Of a DNA stretch of 20,000 nt, positions 251 to 18,715 are shown in pieces (positions within the stretch are counted from its first letter, which is position 1; every line of letters starts with the position of its first letter). This stretch comes from an uncultured virus (IMG/VR IMGVR_UViG_3300011339_000326) (Duplodnaviria > Heunggongvirae > Uroviricota > Caudoviricetes). Location of the stretch: IMG/VR virus record IMGVR_UViG_3300011339_000326; one strand, 5' to 3'. The notes under the pieces are model-generated. The model saw nothing but the letters and a program-made list of their open reading frames with translations, ran no database searches and was not told the DNA's origin. The translations under genes and the position numbers were made by a program.

Positions 251-313
251 TTATGCTCCTGTGGTTTGACACAGGTAATGTACCATAGAAGCGTGCTGGT
301 TACCAGTGGACGT

Positions 314-340
314 AAAAAAGGCCCCCGAAGGAGCCTTTTT
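314..340 (-). terminator. Rho-independent terminator after major capsid gene (possibly bidirectional)
   Basis: Minus strand reads AAAAA-GGCTCC-TTCG-GGGGCC-TTTTTT: a UUCG-loop hairpin plus U-tract, about 20 nt after the MCP stop. Confidence 0.9.
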
Positions 341-359
341 AGAACAACACCAGTCGTTT

Positions 360-1271: not shown

Positions 1272-1282
1272 GATTTAGCTCC

Positions 1283-2119: not shown

Positions 2120-2137
2120 TTAAGACTCCTTAAAAAA

Positions 2138-2605: not shown

Positions 2606-2607
2606 TT

Positions 2608-3612: not shown

Positions 3613-3622
3613 TATTTACTCC

Positions 3623-4033
3623 TTATGCAGCGCGGGTAATTCCACGCGGATCGTCAACTGTTGCTTCAACCGAGTCATCATTGATGATTCGGAACTCGCG
3701 GCCATGAATCTTCAAACGGGTACCGGAATTTGGTCGGCAAATAACAAAATCACCTTCCGCGCACGATGGCCCATTGGGGAAACGAGTCGCGTCTTTGTAC
3801 GCATCAGGTCCAAGTTTCACTACAAATAGCACTGGGGTCAGCACCTCTTCATAGTGCATAGTCTTTGAGTCTTTGATAATCCCCACAGAACTCTCTGCAA
3901 ACTCCTCCATAGCCTCTGGGACTACGCAAAGAACGTGAAAGGTTTTGGGGTCAGGCAACTGCTTCGCTTTTTCCTCGGCACCCTTATTCAGAATACCGGA
4001 GAGGTCCACCGCAGTGATGTCAAATTCACTCAT
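3623..4033 (-). CDS. groES: GroES/Cpn10-like co-chaperonin
   Basis: 136 aa. The pattern P..FHVLCV...SVGII......VVKLGPDAY...CAEGDFV....SGTRLKIHGREFRIINDDSVEATV follows the Cpn10 fold (mobile-loop GII, V..GP, GD.V, G..I.I.G.E..I..D). Confidence 0.8.
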   Translation of the reverse strand: MSEFDITAVDLSGILNKGAEEKAKQLPDPKTFHVLCVVPEAMEEFAESSVGIIKDSKTMHYEEVLTPVLFVVKLGPDAYKDATRFPNGPSCAEGDFVICRPNSGTRLKIHGREFRIINDDSVEATVDDPRGITRAA

Positions 4034-4226
4034 CTTCAGATTTCTCCATACGTTGCACGAGGTCGTTTAGGATAGATTCTGCATGGCTCAGACCCCGGAT
4101 GATCCCGCAGATGTGCCGGTATTCAGGGTAGTCCCCTGCTCTCCCAGCGGAAAGAAAACTCGCTTGCTCATTACGCAATTTGTCTATCTCTCGGGCAATG
4201 AACCCGAGCAAGCGATGTTGATCCAT
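4026..4226 (-). CDS. Small hypothetical protein
   Basis: 66 aa, overlapping both the portal stop and the GroES start (coupled). Carries a DYPEYRHICGIIRGL motif. Confidence 0.7.
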   Translation of the reverse strand: MDQHRLLGFIAREIDKLRNEQASFLSAGRAGDYPEYRHICGIIRGLSHAESILNDLVQRMEKSEDE

Positions 4227-6727: not shown

Positions 6728-6738
6728 GATGTATCCTT

Positions 6739-6774
6739 AAACTGTGTAGAACCGTTTCAAACTGTGTAGAACCG
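6739..6774. repeat. 16-bp tandem direct repeat (AAACTGTGTAGAACCG x2, 20-bp period) at terL 3' end
   Basis: Copies at 6739-6754 and 6759-6774. On the minus strand both read CGGTTCTACACAGTTT, one followed by GA (the TerL TGA stop) and the other by AA (TAA). Confidence 0.95.
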
Positions 6775-8280
6775 CTCTCGGCGGGCACTTTTGAACCACT
6801 TGATCTCTTCTGGTTCGTCAGTGGGCAGTCGTAGGAACCCACCCTGTCTGAACCGCATGAGTGCTAATGTTGTGGCGTCAACCAAGTCATCGTGTTCCCC
6901 GGAAGGAAACGAAGCAACCTCGTCAACTAGCTCCTCGGCCCATCGGGTACGGGGAACCCACACTTTTCCAGACGCAATTATGTCCGAGACCGCATTTAGA
7001 CGAGCAATTTTGTCTTGGCCCTTACCCGGCGTAAACTCCTGCACAGGTATGCCCATTGAGCGAAGCTCGTAGATCAAAGGTGCGCCACTAGCTTTTTTCT
7101 CGATCAACACCCCATCAGGCTCGTACTCGTTGTACTCCTTGAGCACATCTTTCTTTAAGTCCGGGTACTCGACCCGCTTCTTATATGTGTTCAGCAGGAT
7201 GATGTTAGGCGCATTATTGTCCTCGTCTAGGTTAAATATGCCCCATGTAGTGCCCGCAGAATAGTCAGCCCGTTGGTTTTTCTCAAAAGCTGTGTCCCAT
7301 GTCTGCAAAATGTAGTCACAACGGGGTGGATCATCCTTTTCCCACCACTTCCACCAGTCGCGTTTTACGATGGCGCTTTCGTTGCCAACAGGATTCTGCT
7401 GATACTGTGCCTGCCATTTGGAGTTTGGCAGTTCAGCACGGAGGGCTTCAAGCTCTTCGAGGGGCCAGAATTCGGGCCAAAGAGGAGTACCGGACGGCAA
7501 AATGGCCGGAAATTCGATGACTTCCCAATCTTCACCTGCTCGTTGTGCTGCACTTTTGAGTACCTGTCCAGTTAAATCCCGCTGAGCCCAGCGCGTCATC
7601 ACTATAACAATAGCCGCACTTGGCTGCAAACGCTGTCTTGGCCCCGATGTATACCACTCGTACACCTTATCGTAGACTTCTGGGTTGCTGGAGGCCATCG
7701 CAGCCTCTTGTTCTGAGTGCGGATCGTCAATAATGAGCACATCTGCGCCCTTACCGGTCACCGTACCCCCTACGCCGATAGCAAAATAGTCACCGCCCTT
7801 GCTGGTATTCCACCTACCCGCAGCTTTTGAGTCTGCTTGGAGCGTCAATTCGGGAAAAATGTCATGGTAAACCTCGGAATCGACCAGATTTCGCACCTTT
7901 CGACCAAAACCAACTGCCAACTCGCCCGTATTTGAGGTCTGAATCACCTTCTTGTGTGGAAACTTACCTAGAAACCACGCAGGGAGCAGATAAGACGCAA
8001 ATTCTGACTTGGTATGCCGGGGCGGCATGTTGATAATGAGTCGTTTACATGTCCCGTTCGCAACTCGCTCAAACGCTTCGGCCATCCGCTTATGGTGCCT
8101 ACCCGAAATGAAGCTCGGCCACACCGCTTCCACAAACTTGATGAACTTAGTCTGACTAAGCTCCCGTTGTTTCATCTTCTCCAGCTTATCTAGCTGCGCT
8201 TCCAGCACGCGCATGTCCGACTCGGAGAGTTTCCCCGTATTTATGAGCGTCTCGATATCTCTAAGCGAGATGTTACTCAT
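6757..8280 (-). CDS. terL: Terminase large subunit
   Basis: 507 aa with Walker A variant INMPPRHTKS, Walker B VLIIDDPH, coupling motif VMTRW, and RNase H-like nuclease residues in QTWDTA, IEKKASG and HDDLVDA. Confidence 0.96.
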   Translation of the reverse strand: MSNISLRDIETLINTGKLSESDMRVLEAQLDKLEKMKQRELSQTKFIKFVEAVWPSFISGRHHKRMAEAFERVANGTCKRLIINMPPRHTKSEFASYLLPAWFLGKFPHKKVIQTSNTGELAVGFGRKVRNLVDSEVYHDIFPELTLQADSKAAGRWNTSKGGDYFAIGVGGTVTGKGADVLIIDDPHSEQEAAMASSNPEVYDKVYEWYTSGPRQRLQPSAAIVIVMTRWAQRDLTGQVLKSAAQRAGEDWEVIEFPAILPSGTPLWPEFWPLEELEALRAELPNSKWQAQYQQNPVGNESAIVKRDWWKWWEKDDPPRCDYILQTWDTAFEKNQRADYSAGTTWGIFNLDEDNNAPNIILLNTYKKRVEYPDLKKDVLKEYNEYEPDGVLIEKKASGAPLIYELRSMGIPVQEFTPGKGQDKIARLNAVSDIIASGKVWVPRTRWAEELVDEVASFPSGEHDDLVDATTLALMRFRQGGFLRLPTDEPEEIKWFKSARRERFYTV

Positions 8281-8881
8281 CTTGGGTTTGCTCTAGGTCT
8301 AGTTCTGGTTCTGGTTCAGGCACAGGCTCGGGTAGTCCTAGCTGCGCATCCAGATCATCTATTGGGGTTACGTCCGTAACCGTAGTATTCAGCAGACGTT
8401 TGACTCGTTCCTTGATGGAGTTCTCAAGAGACGCAGACGTTGTATGGTGCACAGTAATCTCGCTGCGCTCTGTAAAAATTCCTATGTCGCTGTGCTTGCC
8501 CAAAAGCTCCAACGCCTTTAGTTCAAACCGAGGGTCTCCGCAGTCTGCCAACTCGATGAGCTTATTGGTGATGAAGTTGCGGGCCTGAATTGCATCCGCA
8601 ATCGCTTGGTAGTCGTAAACCTTGAGGATTTGCGCAGCCTTCTTGGCTACGCCGGGGATAGATACAGTTTTTGGTTCTTCGCCCTTTGCCTCCCCCTTGA
8701 TCAGGGTGCGGGCCTTCGCTTCGTCCTCTTCTGAGAAATCAATGCTGCCCCCCAACTGATCTATGAGGTCTGCAGTATTTGCAGCAATGGCAATACTGTC
8801 TGCATGCGTTTTGGGCTGCTCTGCGGACAGATCAAAGGGCAGTGGATGTTCTGCAGTAGGCGTAATTTCTATCATGTGCAC
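8273..8881 (-). CDS. Putative terminase small subunit
   Basis: 202 aa, overlapping the terL start and first gene of the packaging operon. The helical ELKALELLGKHSDIGIF segment resembles TerS oligomerisation regions. Start codon uncertain. Confidence 0.55.
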   Translation of the reverse strand: MHMIEITPTAEHPLPFDLSAEQPKTHADSIAIAANTADLIDQLGGSIDFSEEDEAKARTLIKGEAKGEEPKTVSIPGVAKKAAQILKVYDYQAIADAIQARNFITNKLIELADCGDPRFELKALELLGKHSDIGIFTERSEITVHHTTSASLENSIKERVKRLLNTTVTDVTPIDDLDAQLGLPEPVPEPEPELDLEQTQDE

Positions 8882-8923
8882 CGGGTTAGCGGGAGTTGGG
8901 CCAAATGTAACACAAAAATATAT

Positions 8924-9114
8924 GGGGGTGGGGGTGTTTGATTTAGAAAAGTGACGGGGGGTGTTTCTGGGGCAGCAGTTGGCGGAATGGCTTGGTGGAT
9001 TTTGTAGGGGGTGGGGGGTGTTTTGTTAGGAAAAATTTAAAAGTGAGTATCGGGTGTGCAACGCACAGAGTATAGGTACCGGGTACCCTAAACAGCCCTT
9101 TCGGGGTGGTGGGG
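8924..9114. repeat. G-tract-rich intergenic junction (GGGGGTGTTT x3, GGTACC palindromes); possible packaging/terminus region
   Basis: GGGGGTGTTT at 8930, 8957 and 9014; GGTACCGGGTACC at 9075-9087; GGGGTGGTGGGG at 9103-9114. Lies between the divergent operons. The function is inferred. Confidence 0.55.
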
Positions 9115-9281
9115 TCGTCGTCAGCGTCGCCATCTAAACTTGTTAGGCCGTACGGGGTCTGATTCCCTGTATTTATTGTCCACGCTTATTATGGTTTTTC
9201 GTCATACGATGTTATACATTAGACCCATCGATTCATACAGCACATTGCCTGTATGTCGATTAAACCTAGAAGGGGTTTATC

Positions 9282-9800
9282 ATGTTAGAAGTTATCGTCA
9301 CGGTTCCTACATTGTCCGACATTGCTGTCCTGCGCACTAGGGCTGTAGATTCAGAAGCTAGTGTGTACGGGGCGCGTAAAGACTACGCAAAGGGAATCAA
9401 TGGGCTGTCCGATATCGCATGGTATAGAGACGGGGTTCAATTGCCTAAGGCAATAGCTGAGGAGAAGGCCGAATACTATAAGGCCTTGAAGGCCATCGGA
9501 TACTCTAACCCCAGTAACGCGTGGAAGATGGTCAAGCAATACGCCTTCGAGGCCGCGAAGGCCGAAGGGTTATTTGGCGAAGTGGCCGAAACGGGCGAAG
9601 AGGGCGAAGAGGGCGAAGCTGGCGAAACCCGCGAAACCCGCTCGTTAACCCTTCGCATGGTCGAAGAGCTTACGACGCTCCATAAAGCGGCCATGAAAAC
9701 TCGGGACAATAAGCCTGAGCAATACAGCCCGAAAGTGGCGCTCGCGCACCATCATGTGATCGAAGCACTCAAGGCAATGGGTGTTGACGTAGGCATCTAA
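9282..9800 (+). CDS. Hypothetical protein, first gene of the rightward arm
   Basis: 172 aa with a GAAGGGG RBS and an internal acidic linker encoded by 9-bp repeats (GEEGEEGEAGETRETR). Confidence 0.8.
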   Translation: MLEVIVTVPTLSDIAVLRTRAVDSEASVYGARKDYAKGINGLSDIAWYRDGVQLPKAIAEEKAEYYKALKAIGYSNPSNAWKMVKQYAFEAAKAEGLFGEVAETGEEGEEGEAGETRETRSLTLRMVEELTTLHKAAMKTRDNKPEQYSPKVALAHHHVIEALKAMGVDVGI

Positions 9801-9827
9801 GGGAATGGGGCAGGGTAAACCCTGCCC

Positions 9828-9840
9828 CTAACAATGTTAG
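9828..9840. repeat. 13-bp palindrome copy 1 (CTAACAATGTTAG), intergenic
   Basis: Exact match, extending to CCTAACAATGTTAGG. Abuts the GC hairpin at 9807-9828. Confidence 0.95.
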
Positions 9841-9932
9841 GTTTACCATGAAATAGCTACCCGGCGTGCGCAGGCCGTAAAACTGCGCAGGATGTTGGGT
9901 TCCTACTAACAAAGCCCTTCGTATGCTCACGC

Positions 9933-9965
9933 AGGCCCTGATCTCGTCGGATCGGGGCTTTTTTT
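9933..9965 (+). terminator. Rho-independent terminator
   Basis: AGGCCCTGATC-tcgtcg-GATCGGGGCTT followed by a T-run. Confidence 0.85.
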
Positions 9966-9974
9966 CGTCCGCGA

Positions 9975-10099
9975 TTTATGCCAGTTCCCACGTAGTTGCT
10001 CGGGGCTGGCGCTCGGCTTGCTGCTGCCGTGGAATCTGCAGGGGGTTGGTTTTGGGGCTTGGGCTTTTATGCCAGTTCCCATGTCCGAGTCCGGGGCTG
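9975..10099. repeat. Bipartite direct repeat TTTATGCCAGTTCCCA-N10-CGGGGCTG x2 (91-bp period)
   Basis: Copies at 9975-10008 and 10066-10099: 16 identical bp, 10 variable bp, then 8 identical bp. Confidence 0.9.
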
Positions 10100-10103
10100 C
10101 GGC

Positions 10104-10394
10104 CTACTCGATGTTCTGCTGTAACTGCAGCAGGGTTTGCCGTTCCCGGTCTAACACTGTTAGGCGATGGGCAATGTAGTCGGCGACGGACTTGTTACCT
10201 TTGCGGAAGTTGCACTGCTTGCAAGCCACTACTAAGTTATCCGCATTGAACGCACCGCCTTTGGATTCGGGGTGAACGTGGTCTATGTTTAGCTGAGTTT
10301 TGTAGAGCTTCGACTTGCCGCAGTATCTGCAAGTCCTTTTGTCCCGCGCTATCACATCATCGCGGAGTTGCTTGGCGGCTTCCCGCATGTTCAT
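10104..10394 (-). CDS. HNH endonuclease
   Basis: RDKRTCRYCG...IDHVHP...GG....NLVVACKQCN..KG is a canonical HNH/Zn motif. The likely start is ATG 10394 (AAGGGG RBS, promoter just upstream), not the 10541 given in the ORF track. Confidence 0.9.
   Translation of the reverse strand: MNMREAAKQLRDDVIARDKRTCRYCGKSKLYKTQLNIDHVHPESKGGAFNADNLVVACKQCNFRKGNKSVADYIAHRLTVLDRERQTLLQLQQNIE
10151..10163. repeat. 13-bp palindrome copy 2 (CTAACACTGTTAG), inside HNH gene
   Basis: Centre base C. Encodes L-T-V-L on the minus strand. Confidence 0.9.
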
Positions 10395-10419
10395 CTTGTT
10401 ACCCCTTAAACTGCTTAGC

Positions 10420-10448
10420 AGTTTAACCGTGGATTTACTGAAAGTCAA
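10420..10448 (-). promoter_or_regulatory. sigma70-type promoter for HNH gene
   Basis: Minus strand TTGACT-N17-TAAACT. The -10 overlaps a 21-bp palindrome TTAAACTGCT-T-AGCAGTTTAA (10406-10426). Confidence 0.7.
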
Positions 10449-10480
10449 GCCTTTTTGGTAGTATTTCGCAGCATCGGGGG

Positions 10481-10493
10481 CTAACAATGTTAG
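10481..10493. repeat. 13-bp palindrome copy 3 (CTAACAATGTTAG), intergenic
   Basis: Exact match, about 30 bp upstream of the HNH promoter -35. Confidence 0.95.
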
Positions 10494-10753
10494 GTTTTGG
10501 GGCTTTTGCGTTACGTTTTTAGGGGTATTGTTACTTTTCACATAGTGAAAAGGCTGGGAACCCGCATGGATGCTAGGTTCCTTGCTATTAAGTTAGATGT
10601 TACGTGTTACAACGAGGGTATGAAGGTTGGAAAATCTGCAAGAGCGGCAAAACGAGGGGCAACGAGCCAGCAAGAGTATTTTGTATTACGCACTTTCCAG
10701 CGCCATACCCTTTTTTACTCAAAACATTATAATTTATATATATAAAAGTATCC

Positions 10754-10766
10754 TAACCTATTGATT
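10754..10766 (-). promoter_or_regulatory. IHF consensus site
   Basis: Minus strand AATCAATAGGTTA matches WATCAANNNNTTR and is flanked by AT-rich tracts. Confidence 0.55.
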
Positions 10767-10856
10767 TCATTGGGTTTTTTACGTTACGTTTTTTTCATTT
10801 TTTCTCCCTTTGTTACAACAGCCTTTTGTAACGCACCCTTGCCCATCCCCGACACG

Positions 10857-10865
10857 TGTTATAAT
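10857..10865 (+). promoter_or_regulatory. Extended -10 promoter (TGnTATAAT)
   Basis: TGTTATAAT about 30 bp upstream of the ATG at 10898. TTGCCC at 10839 has only a 15-bp spacer. Confidence 0.65.
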
Positions 10866-10897
10866 CTATATAGTTACACCACAACCAAAGGATTGCC

Positions 10898-11215
10898 ATG
10901 AAGCCCAAGTTACGACTGACAAGTCTGATCTCCACCGTTTCCTCACAACAAATGAGCGAAGCCATAGAAGTTCTGAACTGCAGTAAATCGGACGCAATCC
11001 GTGAGGCAATGTCGGTGCACGCCTACAAAGCCAAGTCGTTGCATGTACCGCCGAAGTTCCAACCCCCCAAGACGTACGCAGACAGGTTGTTCATAAATGC
11101 AGTCGTCGATGCGGAGACGAAGCAGGACTACGAGATACTCGCAAGACGCTACGGCGTACCTGTATCCGAGCTAGTCCTACGCTGCCTAAGTGCATACGTG
11201 CTGCGGAGCCAATAA
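10898..11215 (+). CDS. Putative DNA-binding protein with two tandem ribbon-helix-helix-like domains
   Basis: 105 aa with AAAGGA RBS. LRLTSLI...QQMSEAIEVLNCSKSDAIREAM and FINAVVDAETKQDYEILARRYGVPVSELVLRCL both follow the RHH beta-helix-(G)xSxSE-helix pattern. Confidence 0.6.
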   Translation: MKPKLRLTSLISTVSSQQMSEAIEVLNCSKSDAIREAMSVHAYKAKSLHVPPKFQPPKTYADRLFINAVVDAETKQDYEILARRYGVPVSELVLRCLSAYVLRSQ

Positions 11216-11264
11216 CACCCCAAAACCTTTACTCTTACCCCAAGTGCAACGCTGCCGCTTACTC

Positions 11265-11293
11265 TTGCATAGTACATAACAATGTGATACACT
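11265..11293 (+). promoter_or_regulatory. sigma70-type early promoter
   Basis: TTGCAT-N17-TACACT with extended -10 TG. Closely resembles the promoter at 14758. Confidence 0.7.
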
Positions 11294-11343
11294 ATAGGCT
11301 CAGGTGGGAAATCTCCTACCTGCAACCCGGCAAGCAAGCCAAC

Positions 11344-11356
11344 CTAACAATGTTAG
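11344..11356. repeat. 13-bp palindrome copy 4 (CTAACAATGTTAG), 5' leader
   Basis: Extends to a 17-bp palindrome ACCTAACAATGTTAGGT between the promoter and the RBS. Confidence 0.95.
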
Positions 11357-11378
11357 GTCTAACAGCAAAGGAAGCATC

Positions 11379-11756
11379 ATGAGCAAGCAAATCAACCAAA
11401 ACAGTATCAACGTCCTTATGCGCCACGTGCGTCATACCCTCGCACCCAACACAGAGGTGCGCCAAGTCAGCGCATCGAGCGAGGGCGTAGGGTTCTACAT
11501 GGACTCCCGGCATGGGGAGAAAACCCGTGATCTAGTGCACTTTTCGTGCACACCAACAGACCCCGAAGATGGGCAAGCCGAAGGCGGCTGGAATATCCTT
11601 GCCCGACTAGATGGCGGGCAGTTTGTCGGCGAGTGGGTTGCACAGGGCGAAAGCCTCAACGCAGACTGGTACGCTGCATGGTTCAGCGTAATGGCTAACT
11701 GCAGCGGGGCTAACTACTGGCTGCGTTTCGTCGAGGTCGAGGAGGTGCTGGAATGA
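11379..11756 (+). CDS. Hypothetical protein
   Basis: Start reassigned to ATG 11379 (MSKQINQ...) after an AAAGGA RBS. ATGA overlap with the next gene. Confidence 0.75.
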   Translation: MSKQINQNSINVLMRHVRHTLAPNTEVRQVSASSEGVGFYMDSRHGEKTRDLVHFSCTPTDPEDGQAEGGWNILARLDGGQFVGEWVAQGESLNADWYAAWFSVMANCSGANYWLRFVEVEEVLE

Positions 11757-11878
11757 AGCCCAAGACCAAATCCGACCTAACATTGTTAGGCATGACGCCA
11801 ATACAACGCGCCGAACGCATCGTGTTCCTCTTGTGCCTCATTGTGCTGGCACTCGATCTTTTATTTTGGAGGCCATGA
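11753..11878 (+). CDS. Small membrane protein (41 aa)
   Basis: Below the ORF-track cut-off. MKPKTKSDLTLLGMTPIQRAERIVFLLCLIVLALDLLFWRP, with a GGAGGT RBS, ATGA overlaps at both ends and one hydrophobic helix. Confidence 0.7.
   Translation: MKPKTKSDLTLLGMTPIQRAERIVFLLCLIVLALDLLFWRP
11777..11789. repeat. 13-bp palindrome copy 5 (CTAACATTGTTAG), intragenic
   Basis: Encodes L-T-L-L. Confidence 0.95.
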
Positions 11879-12114
11879 TGGGACAAGTAAAAGCCCTTCT
11901 CTGCACCTGCAGTCACTGCGGTGACGATATTGACCCTCGGCGAGTAACCCTAGGGTATCGGCTCTGCCTGTGGTGCGGTGAGGAAGCCGCAACCCAGACC
12001 CGGAAGGGCTGGACCGTGGTGCAGGAATACACCAAGGGTAACTATCAGTTCATTACCCCTAGCAGCGTAGCAGTAACACTTAAGCAGACTAACCCGAAGA
12101 ACCTGAGGACATAA
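11875..12114 (+). CDS. C4 zinc-finger protein (DksA/TraR-like Zn finger)
   Basis: CSHCGDDIDPRR..LGYRLCLWC fits the CxxCGxxIxxxRxxxxxxxCxxC pattern. GGAGG RBS; start ATG 11875 or 11878. Confidence 0.7.
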   Translation: MMGQVKALLCTCSHCGDDIDPRRVTLGYRLCLWCGEEAATQTRKGWTVVQEYTKGNYQFITPSSVAVTLKQTNPKNLRT

Positions 12115-12116
12115 GC

Positions 12117-12365
12117 ATGACAACGACCACAACAAAACGACCCTACATCACCCAATACTTTGAGGCACCCAATGCCTCGGGTAAGAAGCCAGCATCCACC
12201 GGGTATGCGGCAACCCTGCGCGGTGCGCGTAGGAACATGGCCGTGCGCATCGTGCTCGGCCAATACGGCTTGGCTATAGTAGCCGAGAGGGAGAAGGTAA
12301 CGACAACGCCCCTGTGCGTCATGCGCAGGACAACCACAGGCATAGATATCAAGGAGGGTGTATGA
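12117..12365 (+). CDS. Hypothetical protein
   Basis: 82 aa, GAGGA RBS, tightly packed in the operon. Confidence 0.75.
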   Translation: MTTTTTKRPYITQYFEAPNASGKKPASTGYAATLRGARRNMAVRIVLGQYGLAIVAEREKVTTTPLCVMRRTTTGIDIKEGV

Positions 12366-12598
12366 AACTCAGGGGGTTGAAGAAGGTACGGCACGGGATG
12401 GTGAACCGTGCCGACTGGATCGCAGCCGACAACGACACGAGGATGTATTTCATCCGAGGGGTCAAGCCATGCAAAACCTACTCACCTTGGTGCAGTGACT
12501 GCAATGCGGTCAAGTTTAGGCGGGACATGGCTCGGTTCCCCTACTCCATCGTGGAGTTCAACGAGTACGAGGACAAGCAACAGGAGAAAACGGAATGA
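12362..12598 (+). CDS. Hypothetical protein
   Basis: Start ATG 12362 (AGGAGG RBS, ATGA overlap). Contains C...CSDC. Confidence 0.7.
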   Translation: MKLRGLKKVRHGMVNRADWIAADNDTRMYFIRGVKPCKTYSPWCSDCNAVKFRRDMARFPYSIVEFNEYEDKQQEKTE

Positions 12599-12804
12599 TC
12601 ACCAACACATTCATCACCGAGGATGGCAAGTACCACATCGAGTCACTCGGCAACGGGTGGGCGTACTCAGTCACCTGCCAGCGTACAGGTAACAACTTCT
12701 TTGTGCAGGACCACGATGCCGACACCCTGCAGCAGGAGACGAGCAACTTCGAGTGCACTGGTGCACTGGACAACTATATGGAGGCCCTTGGGGGAGAAGC
12801 ATGA
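12595..12804 (+). CDS. Hypothetical protein
   Basis: 69 aa, AGGAG RBS, ATGA overlaps. Confidence 0.75.
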   Translation: MITNTFITEDGKYHIESLGNGWAYSVTCQRTGNNFFVQDHDADTLQQETSNFECTGALDNYMEALGGEA

Positions 12805-13049
12805 GTAACCGAAAACAAATCGACACAAGTGGACCACTCACCGAGGCAGAGCAGAAGTCAATGAGGCAGAAGGTGGACCTGATTCTGTCCCTTGCAGGCT
12901 CAGACCCTGCAACGATGCTAGCTGCTATTAGCTATGCGCTGGTAAATGCAGCAGCTAAGTGTGACGTCACGCCGATGAGCGTGATCAGTGTATTGGCCCA
13001 GATGTTTGACGACACAGAGGAGAGTGAAGATGAAGATCAAGACGAGTGA
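12801..13049 (+). CDS. Hypothetical protein
   Basis: Start ATG 12801 (MSNRKQ...), GGGGAG RBS, acidic C-terminal tail. Confidence 0.7.
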   Translation: MSNRKQIDTSGPLTEAEQKSMRQKVDLILSLAGSDPATMLAAISYALVNAAAKCDVTPMSVISVLAQMFDDTEESEDEDQDE

Positions 13050-13425
13050 CCTAACATTGTTAGCCCTTGATTGGGCAGTGGCTGAGTCCGAGAAGATGGA
13101 TATTGAGATACGCCCAGCGGGTGCGTGTGGACGGCCTTTGTACGTGCTTGCTGCTGAGGCTGGCCGTACACCATGGACATGGACTCCGACAACAAGCTGG
13201 CACCAAGGTGGGCCGATTATTGATCGGGAGAAGATCGCAACGTCCCCGCTGCCTAATAACTCATGGAGGGCCTATGCGCCGATGGGCACTCGCGTTCTGA
13301 ATGGACGGGAGATATTTAGCTGGCAACACAAAGGGAATGGCCCAACCCTACTCATCGCAGCCATGCGCTGCTATGTGGCCTCAAAACTCGGCGACACCGT
13401 TGACATACCAGAGGAGTTGGTATGA
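13030..13425 (+). CDS. DUF2591 / NinX-like phage protein
   Basis: MKIKTSDLTLLALDWAVA...PTTSWHQGGPIIDREKI...GPTLLIAAMRCYVASKLGDTVDIPEEL is the family signature as I recall it. Start ATG 13030. Confidence 0.8.
   Translation: MKIKTSDLTLLALDWAVAESEKMDIEIRPAGACGRPLYVLAAEAGRTPWTWTPTTSWHQGGPIIDREKIATSPLPNNSWRAYAPMGTRVLNGREIFSWQHKGNGPTLLIAAMRCYVASKLGDTVDIPEELV
13051..13063. repeat. 13-bp palindrome copy 6 (CTAACATTGTTAG), intragenic
   Basis: Encodes L-T-L-L in the DUF2591-like gene. Confidence 0.95.
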
Positions 13426-13682
13426 GTAAATGGATAAAGGCCAATAAGTATTGCGAGTACGTTGACTTCGACAAGGAGTTGTACCGACTGCCCGACAAGG
13501 GCAACACGAGCGTGGACATACGGCTGACGTTCAACACAGACATGCGCACGTGCTACTACACGATCAGCTTGAAGAACGACGATGGCGATACGCGTGATTG
13601 GCAGCAAGACCACCGCGTACCTTGGGCCGTGGGCGTTGCAATGCTCGGTGACGAGGTGGAAGTGCCCGAGGAGTTGCAGTGA
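13422..13682 (+). CDS. Hypothetical protein
   Basis: 86 aa, ATGA overlap. The C-terminus LGDEVEVPEEL resembles that of the preceding gene. Confidence 0.75.
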   Translation: MSKWIKANKYCEYVDFDKELYRLPDKGNTSVDIRLTFNTDMRTCYYTISLKNDDGDTRDWQQDHRVPWAVGVAMLGDEVEVPEELQ

Positions 13683-13831
13683 TCAGGTTCTTTGTGTCTG
13701 GCTGGAGTAGCCGCTTCAGCCTGTGGCACTCAGAGGTCATCGAGGCCAAGAGCAAGGCTGCGGCCAAGGAGCGGTTCGTCGCCCTGCGGCCTACGCTGAA
13801 ACATGTCAAGGTTTTAATTTTAGGAGATTAG
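13679..13831 (+). CDS. Small hypothetical protein (50 aa)
   Basis: GTG start overlapping the previous stop, GAGGAG RBS. MIRFFVSGWSSRFSLWHSEVIEAKSKAAAKERF... fills the gap to the next gene. Confidence 0.6.
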   Translation: MIRFFVSGWSSRFSLWHSEVIEAKSKAAAKERFVALRPTLKHVKVLILGD

Positions 13832-13832
13832 C

Positions 13833-14735
13833 ATGTATGGAAATGGAAGTATGCGCGAGATCAAGCGTATAACGACATACGAGGAAGCGAAGCTGCGGTA
13901 CGAGCAGGTCAAGCCGATCAGGGGCAGGGCTGGAGATGTGCGCCCATTGGGCGAGCGAAGGAATGACAACTTCAGGATAGCCAAGCGAGTGAACCCACTA
14001 AGCGGCATCACAGCCTATCAGTGCATCCTGTACTCGACCCCGGTGGTGGAGTTCAAGCCCGACGGTGATGTGGAGATCGTTATGGGTGGGTGGGCCACGA
14101 CTGCAACCCGGACATTCATAGAACGACTGCTGCACCTTAGCTGTTACTCAAAGAACGACAGTAGTGTGCTGTGTCTTGGCAATAAAGCCGAGGTTGTGCT
14201 GCACCCGACCAAGACCACAGTGATCCGTCGGCTGGAGGTCTATCCGTACACGTGGGAACTAACATCGAGCGAGCCGGTGTACGAAACGCAGTTGAACAAG
14301 AAGAAGGCTAACAATGTTAGGGCGCAGTACAGCGAGTTCGAGAAGTACCTGAAGGCAATGGTCAACCTGCGCGAAGAAACACGGATGGAAGGTTTCATGA
14401 GGGGCAAGTACGTCTACAAACGTATCACGTTCACCAAAACCGAGTTCATCGAGGCGGATTTGGGCGGCATGGTGCAGGTGGAGCTAATGCGGAACGACCA
14501 ACCGGAGGAGAGCAAGCACAGCAACTTCTACAAAGCAGCGCTTGGGATTGCTATATCTATTAGAGGAGGGTTTACGGCCGTTAGGGGGGGTCCCGAGATG
14601 TACTTGCAGTCAAACACTTTGCTGCCCAAGTTCCGCGAGATTGTGTACCGACACCATAAGAACGAGGTGTTCGAGAAGGTGCTGCTGCCCGTAGGTAAGG
14701 CAGCGAACAAGAAGTACGACAGTTGGGTCAAGTAA
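13833..14735 (+). CDS. Hypothetical protein (300 aa)
   Basis: AGGAG RBS, long ORF; I recognise no catalytic motif. Confidence 0.85.
   Translation: MYGNGSMREIKRITTYEEAKLRYEQVKPIRGRAGDVRPLGERRNDNFRIAKRVNPLSGITAYQCILYSTPVVEFKPDGDVEIVMGGWATTATRTFIERLLHLSCYSKNDSSVLCLGNKAEVVLHPTKTTVIRRLEVYPYTWELTSSEPVYETQLNKKKANNVRAQYSEFEKYLKAMVNLREETRMEGFMRGKYVYKRITFTKTEFIEADLGGMVQVELMRNDQPEESKHSNFYKAALGIAISIRGGFTAVRGGPEMYLQSNTLLPKFREIVYRHHKNEVFEKVLLPVGKAANKKYDSWVK
14308..14320. repeat. 13-bp palindrome copy 7 (CTAACAATGTTAG), intragenic
   Basis: Encodes A-N-N-V-R, a different frame from the L-T-x-L copies. Confidence 0.95.
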
Positions 14736-14757
14736 AGAGTAAAGGTTGTGCTTACGC

Positions 14758-14786
14758 TTGACATAGGTACTATATTGTGTTACAAT
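14758..14786 (+). promoter_or_regulatory. Strong sigma70-type promoter for the AAA/VWA operon
   Basis: TTGACA-N17-TACAAT with extended -10 TG. Confidence 0.85.
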
Positions 14787-14823
14787 GTAGTTTGATTAGC
14801 GGTAGTGTGGTTAGGGCTAGCCC

Positions 14824-14836
14824 CTAACAATGTTAG
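14824..14836. repeat. 13-bp palindrome copy 8 (CTAACAATGTTAG), 5' leader
   Basis: About 30 bp downstream of the predicted TSS of the 14758 promoter. Confidence 0.95.
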
Positions 14837-14880
14837 TAGTGGGCGTCTTGCCCGGTTAGTGTTATTTTAAGGAGTTAGAA

Positions 14881-15945
14881 ATGGCTGAAGTCACATTTGG
14901 TAAGAGCATCACGCTCAAGCAAGCTGCGGACCTGATTTGCAGCAACCCGGAAACCCGCTTCCTCTTGCAGGGCGAGCCCGGTATCGGCAAGTCCAGTCTG
15001 CTGGAAATGATCAGCGCACGCATGGGTTTTGCTCATTCGTATATTGACGTACCCAATATGGATTTGGGCGACATTGCGATGCCGGTGATTGATCACGAGA
15101 CCAAGACAACCCGGTATTACCCGAATGCCCGCTTTAATGTGCACGAGGGCAAGCCTGTGGTGGTGATGCTTGACGAGTTCACCAAGGGTGCCGACCCGGT
15201 GAAGAACATGCTGCACCCTATGCTAGAGAAGGCAAACCCACGGCTGGGTGACATCAGCTTGAACAAGGACTGCATCGTGTTCTTGACGGGCAACCTGTCT
15301 ACCGACGGTGTGGGCGACAACCTGAAAGCACATAGCCGTAATCGTTTAGTCCCGGTGACGATCAGCAAACCCAATGCCGAGCAGTGGATTGAGTGGGCTA
15401 TCAACAAGAACATCGAGGCCGAGGTGATTGCATGGGTGAGTCGGTTCCCTCAGGTGCTTGCATCGTATACGGACGGGGGGCAGAACGACAACCCGTACAT
15501 CTACAACCCTAAGCGCAACCAGAATGCGTTCGTGTCGCCCCGCTCACTGGAGACTGCATCTAACATTGTTAGGACCCGCAAGCAGAACGACCCGGATGCG
15601 GTGATCGCGGCACTCAGTGGTGCTATCGGTGAGTCAGGTGCACGGGACATGCAGGCGTACATCGAGTTTGCCGACCAGCTACCAACGTGGGAGGCGACGG
15701 TGAGTAAGCCCGACACAGCGCCTGTGCCTACTAGCCCCGGTGCATGCTCAATCGTGGTGTTTGGTGCTATCTCCCGTGTGACCAAGGAGACGATCACGCC
15801 GTTCATGCAGTATCTGGAGCGGTTCGAGCCTGAGTGGCAGGCAGTGTTCGCAGTCAACATCGCCAAGGCCCCGGCCAAGCAGTCCATTGCGTTCAGTTGC
15901 AAGGCGTTTGCAACGTGGGTTGCCAAGAACCAAGACCTACTGTAA
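14881..15945 (+). CDS. MoxR-like AAA+ ATPase
   Basis: 354 aa with Walker A GEPGIGKS, Walker B VVMLDEF, sensor 1 LTGN, Arg finger NR and sensor 2 SPRS. AAGGAG RBS. Confidence 0.9.
   Translation: MAEVTFGKSITLKQAADLICSNPETRFLLQGEPGIGKSSLLEMISARMGFAHSYIDVPNMDLGDIAMPVIDHETKTTRYYPNARFNVHEGKPVVVMLDEFTKGADPVKNMLHPMLEKANPRLGDISLNKDCIVFLTGNLSTDGVGDNLKAHSRNRLVPVTISKPNAEQWIEWAINKNIEAEVIAWVSRFPQVLASYTDGGQNDNPYIYNPKRNQNAFVSPRSLETASNIVRTRKQNDPDAVIAALSGAIGESGARDMQAYIEFADQLPTWEATVSKPDTAPVPTSPGACSIVVFGAISRVTKETITPFMQYLERFEPEWQAVFAVNIAKAPAKQSIAFSCKAFATWVAKNQDLL
15560..15572. repeat. 13-bp palindrome copy 9 (CTAACATTGTTAG), intragenic
   Basis: Encodes S-N-I-V-R in the ATPase. Confidence 0.95.
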
Positions 15946-15960
15946 TACAAGGAGTTAAAC

Positions 15961-17166
15961 ATGGAAGCAGAACGTAAATTGCAGAAGGCGAAGATCGCCT
16001 TGATGCGCAACAAGAACTTTGCCCTGTTGCAGGGCGTGATGATGATTGGCAAGACGCGAGTGGATGAGCACACGCCGACTGCCTGTACTAACGGACGGGA
16101 TGAGGTGTACGGGCGTGAGTTCGTGACCAAGCTGCGTGATCCTGAGTTGTGCTTTGTGATTGCCCACGAGGCAGGGCACAAGATGTACCGGCACATGACC
16201 ACGTGGAAGAAGCTGCACGACGAGGACCACCGGCTAGCCAACATTGCCTGTGACCACGTGATCAACCTGATGCTCAAGGAGTTGGACCCGCAAGGTGTGG
16301 TGATAGCTATGCCTGTGTACCGGGATGGTCCACACAAGGGCAAGCAGATGGGCATGTGCGATGCGCGGTTCAAGAACATGAACAGCAAGCAGGTGTTCGA
16401 CATACTGAAAGAGGAGAAGAAGTCGGGCGGCGGAAGCGGTGAGAGTGGCGACGGTGGCGTCGACGAGCACGACTGGGATGGTGCCGAGGGTATGACCGAC
16501 GAGGAGAAGCGCGAGCTAGTGCGAGACATTGACCAAGCTATACGGCAGGGGTTGATGGCGCACAACAAGCAGGTGGGTGAGGGTGCGGGTGGACTAGACC
16601 GCGAGTTGCAGGAGTTGCTTGAGCCCAAGGTCAACTGGCGTGAGGTGCTGCGTGACTACGTGAAGTCCATGTGTCACAGCAAGGACGCGAGTAGCTGGCG
16701 CAGGGTTAACCGTAGGTTCCTATCCACAGGTGTTTACATGCCGAGCATGATCGGTGAGAAGGTGGGGCATCTGGTGGTTGCGATAGACACATCAGGCTCC
16801 ATTGGGCAGGAGGCGTTATCCGAGTTCCTGTCCGAGGTTAAGGGTATCGCCGAAGAGGTAAGCCCTGAGCTTGTGGACTTGATCTATTGGGACAGCGCAG
16901 TGGCTGCACATGAGACCTACACGGAGTCCGAGGTACCTAACATTGTTAGCTCTACCAAGCCACGAGGCGGTGGGGGTACATCACCTAGCTGTGTGTCGGA
17001 CTACCTGAAGAAGGAGCAGATCGTGCCTCAGTGCGTGATCGTGCTGACTGACGGATACGTGGGTAGTGACTGGGGTAACGACTGGACTGCGCCCGTTATG
17101 TGGGCCATCGTAGGAGGTAATGATGTGGTGGCACCGAACGGCAAAACAATTCACATTAAAGACTAA
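15961..17166 (+). CDS. VWA-domain protein with N-terminal putative metallopeptidase (DUF2201-like)
   Basis: 401 aa with TACTNG, an HExxH motif (HEAGH), NIACDHVIN, MIDAS motif IDTSGS, GGGT and LTDG. Confidence 0.9.
   Translation: MEAERKLQKAKIALMRNKNFALLQGVMMIGKTRVDEHTPTACTNGRDEVYGREFVTKLRDPELCFVIAHEAGHKMYRHMTTWKKLHDEDHRLANIACDHVINLMLKELDPQGVVIAMPVYRDGPHKGKQMGMCDARFKNMNSKQVFDILKEEKKSGGGSGESGDGGVDEHDWDGAEGMTDEEKRELVRDIDQAIRQGLMAHNKQVGEGAGGLDRELQELLEPKVNWREVLRDYVKSMCHSKDASSWRRVNRRFLSTGVYMPSMIGEKVGHLVVAIDTSGSIGQEALSEFLSEVKGIAEEVSPELVDLIYWDSAVAAHETYTESEVPNIVSSTKPRGGGGTSPSCVSDYLKKEQIVPQCVIVLTDGYVGSDWGNDWTAPVMWAIVGGNDVVAPNGKTIHIKD
16937..16949. repeat. 13-bp palindrome copy 10 (CTAACATTGTTAG), intragenic
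   Basis: Encodes P-N-I-V-S in the VWA domain. Confidence 0.95.
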
Positions 17167-17176
17167 GGAGGACGAC

Positions 17177-17422
17177 ATGGTGGTTATAGAGTTTGGCTAC
17201 AACACCAGTAGCTTAGTGATGTCGCCTAAGGATGCGCTGGCGATGGCCGAGATCATGCAGCGTGCGGAGAAGTACGAGAAGAAGTACCGCCCCGGAAGTG
17301 GCGGGGGCGAGAGCAGTTACACGTACCACGTGTGGACTAACCCCGATGAGATCACCATGAAGCTCATCAGCGACGACACCTACCGCATGGCAAAGCTGGC
17401 GGGTAAATCGGAGAAGGAATGA
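17177..17422 (+). CDS. Hypothetical protein
   Basis: Start ATG 17177 after AAGGAGG (MVVIEFGYNT...). Confidence 0.75.
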   Translation: MVVIEFGYNTSSLVMSPKDALAMAEIMQRAEKYEKKYRPGSGGGESSYTYHVWTNPDEITMKLISDDTYRMAKLAGKSEKE

Positions 17423-17859
17423 TGCTAGACCCAGAACTGCAGATCAAACTGCTGATAGCTGAACGACCTTGGGAGCAAGAGTGCAAACACTTCGAGGAGT
17501 GGATTGATAAAGGTACGGGGTACACGTGCACGATCTGGCGACACCCGACGCTAGGCCATCTGTGTGGATACGTGGGGATACCCAAGGGGCACCGCTGCTG
17601 TGGGCTTGGGTACAACGACATGAATGACATCGAGGTTCATGGTGGGCTGACGTACTCAGAGGTAGACGATAAGCGGCAGTTGCATGTGTTTGGATTCGAT
17701 GCTGGTCACGGTGGAGATTATTCACCGGGGCTGACGGTCACTCTGCTGAGGGTTACCGGGGAGTTCAATAGAGTGAGCAGAGGCCAAACGTACCGTACGT
17801 GGGCGTACATGAAAGAGCAAGTGTTGAGTTTGTGTAATCAATTGAAACTGAAGGAGTAA
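17419..17859 (+). CDS. Conserved phage hypothetical protein
   Basis: 146 aa with a GHLCGYVGIP..H...VHGGLTYS...FGFDAGH.GD motif set, recalled as common in phage early regions. Confidence 0.8.
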   Translation: MMLDPELQIKLLIAERPWEQECKHFEEWIDKGTGYTCTIWRHPTLGHLCGYVGIPKGHRCCGLGYNDMNDIEVHGGLTYSEVDDKRQLHVFGFDAGHGGDYSPGLTVTLLRVTGEFNRVSRGQTYRTWAYMKEQVLSLCNQLKLKE

Positions 17860-17863
17860 TGAA

Positions 17864-18715
17864 ATGAGTATTAGTGCATCAGCAGTGTTAGTGGAACTGA
17901 ACATCAGTGTGTGGCCTGCGTCGAAGATCGACCGGGAGACAACTGAGCTAACCAATACAAACGCAGGGGCAGTGCGAGACGCATCGCAGACCAAGAAGAA
18001 CCTGTTCGCAGGTACGGGTTTGCGCAAGGACATCGAGAAGTTCGCTGCTCGGGCTCGGCTGTATCACAACCTGCACACATTGCCGTGGGCTGACAAGGGT
18101 GAGCGCATGCTGCCGACCAAGTTGTTCATGGAGTACAAGCAGACGATTAATGGGTTCGAGCGGACGTTCGACGTTATGTGCCAGAACTTCTTTGTGCAGT
18201 ACCCGCGTCTGGTATCTGAAGCCCCTACCAACCTAGGTGCACTGTACAAGGCAGGTGACTACCCTGACCTTGAGGAGGTCAAGCAGAAGTTCGGGTTCCG
18301 TCGCTCAGTCAACCCCATGCCTGACTCCGGCGACTTTCGCTTGGACATACCAGCAGAGGACTTGGATGATGTGCGAGCAGAGTTCCGCGACAAGTTCGAC
18401 GAGCGGCTGAAGGAGGCTATGCGTGCACCGTGGGACAAGCTGCACTCAATGTTGCTAGGTGTATCTGACAAGCTGAAGGAGGGCAACGAGGGGGACAAGA
18501 AGCGATACCACGACTCACTGCTGACCAACCCACTGGAGTTGTGTGCACTGCTGACTAAGCTCAACGTGACCAACGACCCGCTGTTGGAAGAGGCACGGCG
18601 ACAGGTAGAGCTAACAATGTTAGGGGCTAACATGGACAACATCAAAGAGGACGCTGACTCACGCAGCGAGTTGAAGTCCAAGGTCGATTCGATCTTGGGT
18701 AAGTTTAATTGGTAA
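17864..18715 (+). CDS. DUF3150-like protein
   Basis: 283 aa with LVELNISVW...KNLFAG...HTLPWAD.G.RMLP...YP..EEVKQKF...LN(V)TNDP.LEE motifs. From recollection, this family often neighbours AAA/VWA pairs. Confidence 0.6.
   Translation: MSISASAVLVELNISVWPASKIDRETTELTNTNAGAVRDASQTKKNLFAGTGLRKDIEKFAARARLYHNLHTLPWADKGERMLPTKLFMEYKQTINGFERTFDVMCQNFFVQYPRLVSEAPTNLGALYKAGDYPDLEEVKQKFGFRRSVNPMPDSGDFRLDIPAEDLDDVRAEFRDKFDERLKEAMRAPWDKLHSMLLGVSDKLKEGNEGDKKRYHDSLLTNPLELCALLTKLNVTNDPLLEEARRQVELTMLGANMDNIKEDADSRSELKSKVDSILGKFNW
18611..18623. repeat. 13-bp palindrome copy 11 (CTAACAATGTTAG), intragenic
   Basis: Encodes L-T-M-L. Confidence 0.95.

Follow-up and report, generated by a model that had tools for sequence, protein, structure and literature searches.

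A palindromic 13-mer repeated along the early arm of an uncultured freshwater phage as a candidate recognition site for a single early-arm regulator

A 20-kb stretch of DNA from an uncultured freshwater phage (IMG/VR record IMGVR_UViG_3300011339_000326; this whole stretch is called the window below) carries 11 exact copies of a 13-bp palindrome, CTAACANTGTTAG, and every copy falls in its plus-strand early arm. We put the probability at about 0.5 that these 13-mers are the recognition sites of one specific, two-fold symmetric reader that governs expression of the early arm. The minus-strand part of the window (1-8881) holds head and packaging genes, among them those for the capsid (360-1271), the portal (4226-6727) and the large terminase (6757-8280). 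The plus-strand early arm begins at about 9280 and includes small open reading frames (ORFs) without known function, a NinX/DUF2591 gene, a MoxR-like AAA ATPase gene, a DUF2201 metallopeptidase/VWA gene, an HNH endonuclease gene on the opposite strand and further unknowns. An IMG/VR search with the AAA protein returned 321 related stretches, from which 80 loci were kept; the analysis covered 81 loci. Statements about whole genomes rest on these relatives and not on the window's own full genome; the complete relatives bearing the motif number five and are 62 to 66 kb long.

The number of motif copies in the window was compared to that in 200 dinucleotide-preserving shuffles, which gave a mean of 0.00 exact copies against the 11 found, starting at 9828, 10151, 10481, 11344, 11777, 13051, 14308, 14824, 15560, 16937 and 18611. 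When up to two mismatches were allowed, 12 matches were found versus 0.80 expected, the sole addition being the copy at 9134 (CTAAACTTGTTAG). The motif, whose core is written CTAACAWTGTTAG and whose 3-spacer site form is written CTAACAATGTTAG, is thus nearly all-or-none in the window, with 11 perfect, no one-mismatch and one two-mismatch copy, and no copy lies within 1-9100. This exact pattern search agrees with a preliminary description of the same DNA, which had reported the 11 copies, the degenerate one at 9134 and the lack of any in the structural arm. The same description counted seven copies inside coding sequences; intragenic copies were confirmed, six of them in plus-strand genes, and those at 10151 and 10481 lie in the minus-strand HNH gene and not in the plus-strand ORF that had been assumed. 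The three remaining copies (9828, 11344 and 14824) are intergenic. Its observation that the intragenic copies use two reading frames held, since those at 11777, 13051 and 18611 translate as L-T-x-L and those at 14308, 15560 and 16937 as x-N-x-V-R/S. It also noted CTA and TTA codons in genes rich in G and C at third codon positions (GC3). The GC3 of the early-arm genes is indeed 0.65 and these are minority codons, but they are not rare, making up 24 (CTA) and 14 (TTA) of the 218 leucine codons outside the sites.

Confinement of the motif to one arm, which had been proposed from the window, was checked in the relatives. The exact motif is present in 53 of the 81 loci, and the five complete relatives carry 13, 12, 16, 8 and 9 copies, compared to none for a backwards control pattern. 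In these same five genomes all copies fit within a block of 18.2, 15.3, 12.6, 18.8 and 9.0 kb, respectively, with clustering probabilities of 1e-3 to 6e-10, and the block begins where the terminase genes and the first plus-strand gene diverge and continues into the DNA polymerase gene. One-arm confinement was found in all five complete relatives with this motif and in all three long records with a 4-spacer variant. Site density peaks beside the junction, and the widening of spacing away from it, also remarked on earlier, recurs in the window and in four of the five complete relatives; counted per 2.5 kb from the junction, the sites number 7, 1, 2, 1, 0, 0, 1 and 1 in relative G002 and 6, 2, 1, 1, 0, 1, 1 and 0 in relative G003. 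Arm confinement and widening spacing are therefore family traits.

An array that is restricted to one arm and densest beside the junction could serve a structural or DNA-handling role, in which a protein coats the arm, as MatP does on matS or ParB on parS, or in which the sites pace or protect the first-entering end. The many intragenic sites, a feature also of parS and matS, and the breaking of contigs at a junction with conserved G-rich repeats, which may be a physical genome end, are in keeping with this idea. We consider it very unlikely, given that no MatP, ParB/KorB or SMC-type protein was found, that intergenic spaces hold a four-fold excess of sites, which are linked to promoters and start codons, and that the orientation of the sites is biased with transcription, which a purely symmetric structural role would not predict. 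matS is a 13-bp palindrome that is dispersed, often intragenic and limited to one replicon region, and the preliminary description had likened the layout to it when proposing a DNA-marking system. The likeness extends to the palindrome layout only: CTAACAWTGTTAG fails the matS consensus GTGACRNYGTCAC (as quoted in that description), and the phage sites are tied to promoters, 5' untranslated regions (5'UTRs) and gene borders. In addition, scans of 30 window proteins and of relative G002 (85 of 88 called ORFs by PHROGs, 82 by Pfam) revealed no MatP, ribbon-helix-helix or ParB domain. The DNA-marking interpretation was only partly right, and the array fits an operator or "stoperator"-like network better than a MatP-like organizer.

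Variants of the motif were identified by an unbiased palindrome count in every locus. Relatives without this motif bear CTAACA-NN-TGTTAG, CTGACA-NN-TGTCAG or GTAACA-NN-TGTTAC instead, and a single variant predominates in each genome, with a few mixed or degenerate cases. In longer records TAACA-NN-TGTTA occurs in 10, 16 and 20 copies and the CTGACA form in 10 and 10, in the same arm only. Some genomes have relaxed centers (CTAAC-TTT-GTTAG and CTAAC-AAAA-GTTAG) and others mix 3- and 4-base spacers; the general form is two CTAAC arms around a 3- or 4-base A/T spacer. By this measure the 81 sequences comprise 42 3-spacer, 27 4-spacer and 12 motif-poor members, and close relatives whose AAA proteins are about 80% identical differ in both spacer length and arm sequence. 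Flank symmetry was seen over 324 distinct contexts, with C at -1 in 178 and G at +13 in 214; the center base was A or T in 319, and no directional flank such as a -10 element was found. The two-fold symmetry of the site, as described earlier, therefore stands, and the lineage-specific variants imply a specific reader. Each lineage has its own variant (CTAAC-W3-GTTAG, CTAAC-W4-GTTAG or CTGAC-W4-GTCAG), which suggests that reader and sites evolve together and would make them a specificity module. The exact 13-mers were not found in the literature matched by a text search. The inner 11-mer, TAACATTGTTA, is the experimentally defined operator of MtvA, a MazE-like antitoxin of a Pseudomonas plasmid (PMC11826091). 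This match is probably a coincidence, because no AbrB/MazE-type domain was found in these phages.

We compared the retention of individual intragenic sites between genomes of different motif type. The peptide S-N-I-V-R of the AAA protein is conserved across the family, and the site that encodes it (TCT AAC ATT GTT AGG) is present in 37 of 42 3-spacer genomes and in 2 of 27 4-spacer genomes, 15 of the 27 keeping the peptide by other codons, such as TCG AAC ATT GTC CGG. Equivalent differences between 3-spacer and 4-spacer genomes were obtained for the sites in the VWA gene (35 of 40 versus 0 of 26), the 283-amino-acid (aa) gene (32 of 38 versus 2 of 26) and the 300-aa gene (18 of 23 versus 0 of 8). 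At the site in the VWA and 283-aa genes, the two types differ in the peptide itself. At these four positions a site is thus kept almost only in genomes of its own variant, and other genomes, as at the AAA position, recode the same peptide, which shows that type-specific selection works on the nucleotide sequence and not on the protein. This comparison, of the kind that the preliminary description had called for, bears out its proposal that selection acts on the DNA.

The positions of the sites relative to genes and promoters were then determined across the family. Outside plus-strand ORFs lie 146 of 312 distinct 3-spacer sites, compared to 12% of the span being noncoding, and 113 of 162 distinct 4-spacer sites, compared to 18%. 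Sites are approximately four-fold enriched in short intergenic spaces, with peaks 10 to 30 nucleotides (nt) before start codons and 0 to 10 nt after stop codons, and some copies overlap the Shine-Dalgarno sequence (TTAGGAG) and supply part of it (…TGTTAGGAG…). In 36 of 40 distinct relatives the stop codon of the first early gene is followed after 11 to 106 nt by a site, two further relatives have a one- or two-mismatch copy there, and 25 of the 40 have a site before the start of this gene, at about -150 and/or -30. In aligned relatives the order at the junction is G-rich repeats, a type-specific site, a ATTTATTGTTCACG block, the promoter TTGAtt-17-TGTGGTATAAT, a hairpin, an optional second site, a ribosome-binding site and the first gene; the window copy at 9134 fills the upstream site position. 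The AAA 5'UTR carries a site, in each genome of its own variant, that is preceded by a strong conserved sigma-70 promoter and followed by the ribosome-binding site. Strong forward promoters occur 20 to 140 nt upstream in about 100 of 613 site contexts and almost none overlap a site. The preliminary claim that most sites are unrelated to promoters is not upheld across the family, since sites flank the first promoter and gene and are overrepresented outside ORFs family-wide.

The sites and neighboring elements of the window are as follows.

9134 to 9146: degenerate copy CTAAACTTGTTAG, two mismatches, at the position called "O1," which is conserved upstream of the first early promoter.
9190 to 9218, plus strand: putative first early promoter, weak -35 and extended -10 TGtTATACA, placed by positional homology to relatives only.
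9282 to 9800, plus strand: "FIRST," opening gene of the early arm, 172 aa, candidate motif reader.
9808 to 9827, plus strand: GC-rich hairpin GGGCAGGG-TAAA-CCCTGCCC, directly after the stop codon of FIRST and adjoining site 1.
9828 to 9840: site 1, intergenic, 28 nt past the FIRST stop codon.
9933 to 9960, plus strand: terminator-like stem-loop of 12 pairs, then a T-run.
10151 to 10163: site 2, within the minus-strand HNH endonuclease gene (10104-10541).
10481 to 10493: site 3, in the 5' part of the minus-strand HNH gene.
11344 to 11356: site 4, intergenic, 22 nt before the ATG at 11379.
11777 to 11789: site 5, at +24 of the ORF starting at 11753, reading L-T-L-L.
13051 to 13063: site 6, at +21 of the NinX/DUF2591 gene (13030-13425).
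14308 to 14320: site 7, inside the 300-aa gene (13833-14735), reading A-N-N-V-R.
14758 to 14786, plus strand: strong sigma-70-type promoter TTGACA-17-TACAAT with TG, kept in relatives.
14824 to 14836: site 8, in the AAA-gene 5'UTR, about 38 nt past the -10 and 44 nt before the ATG.
15560 to 15572: site 9, inside the MoxR-like AAA gene (14881-15945), reading S-N-I-V-R.
16937 to 16949: site 10, inside the DUF2201 metallopeptidase/VWA gene (15961-17166), reading P-N-I-V-S.
18611 to 18623: site 11, inside the 283-aa gene (17864-18715), reading L-T-M-L-G.

In relatives the O1 position is occupied by a type-specific site at about -150 from the start of the first gene, 20 to 35 nt upstream of the -35, and the close relative L006 has a perfect copy there. 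The element at 9190 to 9218 was not reported by a consensus promoter scan; by its homology to TTGAtt-17-TGTGGTATAAT of the relatives it may, with low confidence, be the first early promoter.

Several other features of the region were observed. A GGG(C/T)AGGGT-nn-ACCCT(G/A)CCC hairpin lies 3' of the first gene in relatives, both in those with the FIRST family and in those with an unrelated gene, f39, in its place. The junction at 8900 to 9130 of the window contains conserved G-rich repeats, GGGGGTGGGGG(G)TGTT and CGGGGGGTGTT, and a block, ATCGnGTGnGC…CACAGTGTGTA, that is found in nearly all relatives; the assembled contigs G002, L029's record and G007 start or stop at this junction, which may mark the physical end of the genome or hold a signal for packaging or replication. 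A ribosome-binding cassette, …AGAAGGA / AGGTTAGA(A/T)…ATG, occurs at 14837 to 14881 of the window and in many relatives' 5'UTRs, where GTTAG, ATTAG and ATCAG pentamers also recur, GTTAG being the half-site of the motif. The HNH gene (10104-10541, minus strand) has no counterpart in the 80 related loci yet bears two perfect copies, and it looks like a recent insertion. The AAA ATPase and DUF2201 metallopeptidase/VWA genes (14881-17166) form an adjacent conserved pair and are the most conserved genes of the arm, with identities across the clade of about 80% and about 68%, respectively.

Placement at gene borders also bears on a proposal that we regard as exceedingly improbable, namely, that the repeats are linkers for modular exchange, identical gene-border sequences aiding the shuffling of early cassettes among co-infecting relatives, a role that has been suggested for the PeSL cassettes of T4-type phages. 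The densest part of the array is a hypervariable small-ORF region with few homologues, and several homology blocks shared with the closest relatives end 8 to 32 nt from sites, for example at 9845-9847, 10478, 11367-11382, 13036-13082 and 14838-14858. When all relatives were considered, however, 2.1% of block ends fell within 15 nt of sites versus 3.3% at random (P = 0.37), and a conserved 13-mer at the edge of a block lengthens alignments trivially. Moreover, 13 bp is short for homologous recombination, no recombinase was found, and this model has no need of codon-maintained sites inside conserved genes.

The placement of the sites suggests how a single reader could govern the arm. The site upstream of the first early promoter, often with a second between promoter and first gene, would be an autoregulatory operator; another site follows the first gene, and the remaining ones occupy short intergenic spaces, 5'UTRs 10 to 30 nt before starts and set spots in conserved genes. 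A reader bound to the duplex could repress by blocking or slowing host RNA polymerase on its way along the arm, much as in the operator/stoperator networks of some phages or at the KorB sites of plasmid RK2, so that early genes would be shut off or insulated, and the perfect sites inside conserved genes would serve as extra roadblocks. The leading candidate for this reader is the product of the first early gene.

We investigated which phage proteins follow the motif. Clustering of ORFs over all loci indicated that only the FIRST family tracks it. In a comparison of eleven long records, FIRST was the sole family found in every motif-bearing record covering the junction and, by BLAST and six-frame profile search, not in motif-less G012, which is 97% complete. 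The family consists of 321 representative clusters, all stand-alone. One of its clades (the 3-spacer clade) is present in 27 loci, all 3-spacer, and another (the 4-spacer clade) in 20 loci, of which 15 are 4-spacer, 4 are CTGAC and 1 is an exception. When loci were grouped by first-gene family, the internal AAA 3-spacer site was present in 25 of 27 with the 3-spacer clade, 1 of 20 with the 4-spacer clade and 2 of 6 with f39, and the AAA 5'UTR 3-spacer site in 24 of 27, 1 of 20 and 1 of 6, respectively. Structure prediction of a FIRST homodimer gave a score of 0.55 versus 0.00 for the best of three controls, a mark reached by 20 of 30 proteins solved as same-chain pairs and 1 of 23 solved as single chains, these calibration counts being only rough because the FIRST run used an alignment of our own. 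At least 78% of contacts agreed between runs, and the partner pLDDT (predicted local distance difference test) was at least 76. This prediction supports binding without showing it. With the evidence against the candidate, given below, also taken into account, we judge the chance that the FIRST product (9282-9800) is the reader of the sites to be about one in three.

Other candidates were considered and rejected. Only one recognized DNA-binding protein is encoded in these genomes, a 79-aa HTH_3 protein (G002 23506-23745, near the primase). Its recognition helix, VSR(A/M)T(V/I)YNW, does not change between 3-spacer, 4-spacer and motif-less genomes, and the protein is therefore not the reader. Among 14 proteins of other type-biased small families, no Pfam DNA-binding domain was found. 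The motif was also considered as a promoter for a phage RNA polymerase, for which neither a polymerase nor a directional flank was found. A remote homology of f39 to FIRST was not upheld (hhalign probability, 3.8%). The f39 protein (approximately 170 aa) replaces the first gene in motif-poor G012 (L010/L011, L112-L115), L004, L005, L012 and L045, and is present as two tandem copies in G012. The array remnants of G012 are one perfect and two one-mismatch sites, and another palindrome, GGGTTAACCC, occurs about five times in that genome, in the same arm plus the terminase gene. f39 and GGGTTAACCC may form an alternative reader/site module.

Several findings weigh against a duplex-bound regulator encoded by the first gene, some of them concerning the sites and others the candidate protein. 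In the window, 8 of the 11 sites are intragenic. The tolerance of 3- and 4-base spacers, sometimes within one genome, fits a hairpin in a single strand at least equally well, and an orientation bias of the center fits it at least as well as a rigid dimer bound to duplex DNA. After similar flanks had been collapsed, intergenic centers read on the sense strand showed 48 AA versus 16 TT clusters (p = 0.007) and 70 A versus 35 T (p = 0.014), a bias beyond composition. The bias with transcription is modest, 2-3 to 1, with only an A/T center able to carry polarity, and the few 4-spacer sites that precede the first gene seem to show the opposite preference.

The main rival is that the motif is read in a single strand, as a CUAAC/GUUAG hairpin with an A/U loop of 3 to 4 nt on early mRNA or transiently single-stranded DNA, by a phage RNA- or hairpin-binding protein steering translation, antitermination or RNA stability of early genes. 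The arms are invariant and the spacer varies in length (3 or 4) and, in some genomes, in sequence (AAA, TTT, AAAA, TTTT and AGAA), an A-to-G change in one arm is always paired with T-to-C in the other, and many sites lie 10 to 30 nt before starts, over the Shine-Dalgarno sequence or at +21 or +24 of ORFs. The A-favoring center on the sense strand points the same way, as do the extended stems of intergenic copies (-5.4 and -6.8 kcal/mol). The stems of intragenic copies, by comparison, are weak, at -1.8 to -2.6 kcal/mol, and do not surpass those of shuffles, and one conserved copy lies upstream of the -35 of the first promoter, where rightward early transcription would not reach. Positions 6 and 8 (A...T) are fixed even though they are unable to pair in a 1-nt loop, each genome uses one stem sequence without compensatory variety from copy to copy, the orientation bias is just 2-3 to 1, and no Rfam family matched. 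On balance, we consider a hairpin reader unlikely.

As for the candidate protein, a phylogenetically independent test of its association with motif type was not significant (7 pairs, approximately 4 one way and 0-1 the opposite way; p = 0.06 to 0.25). In L029 the first gene belongs to the 4-spacer clade but the sites are of the 3-spacer form and none adjoins that gene, and six loci with the unrelated f39 in place of the first gene retain 1 to 5 perfect sites. By plain residue count the FIRST product is not basic. Its model consists of a four-helix N-domain (pLDDT, 82) and a helical hairpin, and the best structural matches of the N-domain are noise-level and to protein-binding bundles, including the KaiA C-domain (Z 6.1; root mean square deviation, 3.5; 78 aligned) and the Rev1 C-terminal domain (Z 5.7). 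Foldseek against the PDB, with the whole model and the N-domain, found nothing at E <= 0.001; the wide VIA-align search gave best Z values of 6.5 and 6.1, in the noise range for helical bundles; and a profile search against PDB sequences reached a best E of 0.11. FIRST has no Pfam or PHROG family: Pfam searches of 42 members (E <= 1) gave only chance-level matches, in at most 3 members each, and none in 40 remote representatives, and protein-atlas leads were sub-threshold (DUF3102, 0.84; Phage_Repressor_c, 0.81). Finally, no protein with a recognized DNA-binding fold co-varies with the motif.

This last result could be accounted for if the bound factor belonged to the host, the phage recruiting or titrating a host regulator or nucleoid protein and the variants tracking hosts; loci without the FIRST family do retain a few perfect sites. 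Several observations oppose such a reading. Close relatives already differ in spacer and arms, and genomes without the first gene, which they have lost, show a decayed array, as in G012. The distinct sites in motif-rich loci are near-perfect (285 perfect, 74 one-mismatch and 29 two-mismatch), and host regulons are usually degenerate. We regard a host factor as highly unlikely.

The array was compared to known multi-site systems. In Cluster A mycobacteriophages, repressors of the L5 gp71 type use more than 20 asymmetric 13-mers located at promoters and in short intergenic spaces with their orientation tied to transcription (PMC9283540), and these sites are described as stoperators, at which bound repressor halts elongation and whose specificities diversify among relatives (PMC9283540; PMC6550527). 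The present array is similar in having many copies of one 13-mer (11 in the window and 8 to 16 in complete relatives) and, family-wide, in their placement at promoters and in short intergenic spaces, although in the window only 3 of 11 are intergenic. It differs in that its site is a perfect palindrome, whereas the Cluster A site is asymmetric and is bound by a monomeric repressor with a helix-turn-helix (HTH) and a second domain; in that it occupies one arm only, often inside genes, with a weak orientation bias; and in that no gp71-like HTH repressor was found in Pfam and PHROGs scans and neither an integrase (85 ORFs scanned) nor a prophage relative (185,579 prokaryote genomes searched) was found here. 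The OB operators of KorB are a 13-bp site present in 12 copies. On plasmid RK2 this palindromic operator is repeated across the replicon, in some cases far from promoters, and mediates global silencing (PMC11790492). KorB, however, is a ParB-family, cytidine triphosphate (CTP)-dependent clamp on a plasmid, and no ParB-like domain was found in the scanned phage proteins. The inverted repeats of the phiC31 repressor c and the operators of P1 C1 are further cases of many operator copies, dispersed over the early region or the entire phage genome, that are served by a single repressor each. Both phages are temperate with known repressors, and the only link to them is the sub-trust Phage_Repressor_c lead of FIRST. 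The PeSL elements of T4-type phages are repeated regulatory elements flanking small variable early genes (PMC2839356; PMC4122927). PeSL are promoter-terminator composites, in contrast to the present motif, which holds no promoter and also occurs inside conserved genes. For the hairpin promoters of the N4 virion polymerase, a stem-loop of 5 bp and 3 nt would fit the definition, but no RNA polymerase match was found in the relatives. The placement of sites after promoters and after the first gene would fit lambda nut/boxB; against this, one copy is upstream of the promoter, there are 8 to 20 copies, some are intragenic, and no N-like antitermination protein was recognized. None of these families includes the present system: its palindromic site, the lack of the defining proteins, the confinement of a partly coding array to one arm and the apparently virulent character of the phages set it apart. 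It is best regarded as a palindromic variant, embedded in coding sequence, of the multi-operator regulatory arrays of phages, with a reader that is possibly of a new fold.

The wider relationships of the phage were also examined. Megablast of the window against 50,697 phage records gave no match, and all matches of the AAA protein in the same records were below 60% identity, the top ones listed being at 21.6 to 27.0% and mostly to N4-like phages. No integrase was found among the 85 ORFs of the closest complete relative, G002, that were scanned with PHROGs, and a search of 185,579 prokaryote genomes for relatives of the AAA gene returned none. Nothing therefore points to lysogeny, and the phages of this clade appear virulent. 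The 20 public runs listed as containing the stretch included no RNA run, and 99% of the stretch is contained in several DNA runs that bear the label of one organism. On its minus strand (26845-35748; locus L083:6845-15748), G002 also encodes a 2,967-aa protein whose C-terminal part is PLxRFG/DarB-like and which gave a weak GHKL-ATPase-like match and a match to a solved "internal virion protein." This virion-type protein is similar to proteins of the PLxRFG/DarB type in podophages of about 60 kb, gave no match to an RNA polymerase and is probably an ejected virion protein.

In these apparently virulent phages, the array and the first early protein could together be a swappable specificity module that provides heteroimmunity without lysogeny, an extension that we hold to be distinctly unlikely as it stands. 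A dimer of undescribed fold, made first, would clamp a dozen palindromes on its own genome and would likewise clamp later-arriving genomes of the same type. The motif types (3-spacer, 4-spacer, CTGAC, GTAAC and the f39 alternative) would in that case represent immunity-like groups that competition between co-infecting relatives has driven. If the sites are indeed read by one early regulator, a large freshwater phage clade runs its whole early arm through one exact palindrome and offers a natural series of matched reader/site pairs in which specificity has switched several times. Such pairs would allow study of how specificity of DNA or hairpin recognition evolves, of roadblock-type control outside the temperate actinophages in which it was defined, and of whether virulent phages have immunity-like groups. 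A dominant palindrome that is confined to one arm and brackets the first gene would also be a simple signature by which to recognize the early arm of uncultured phage genomes and perhaps the end that enters the cell first.

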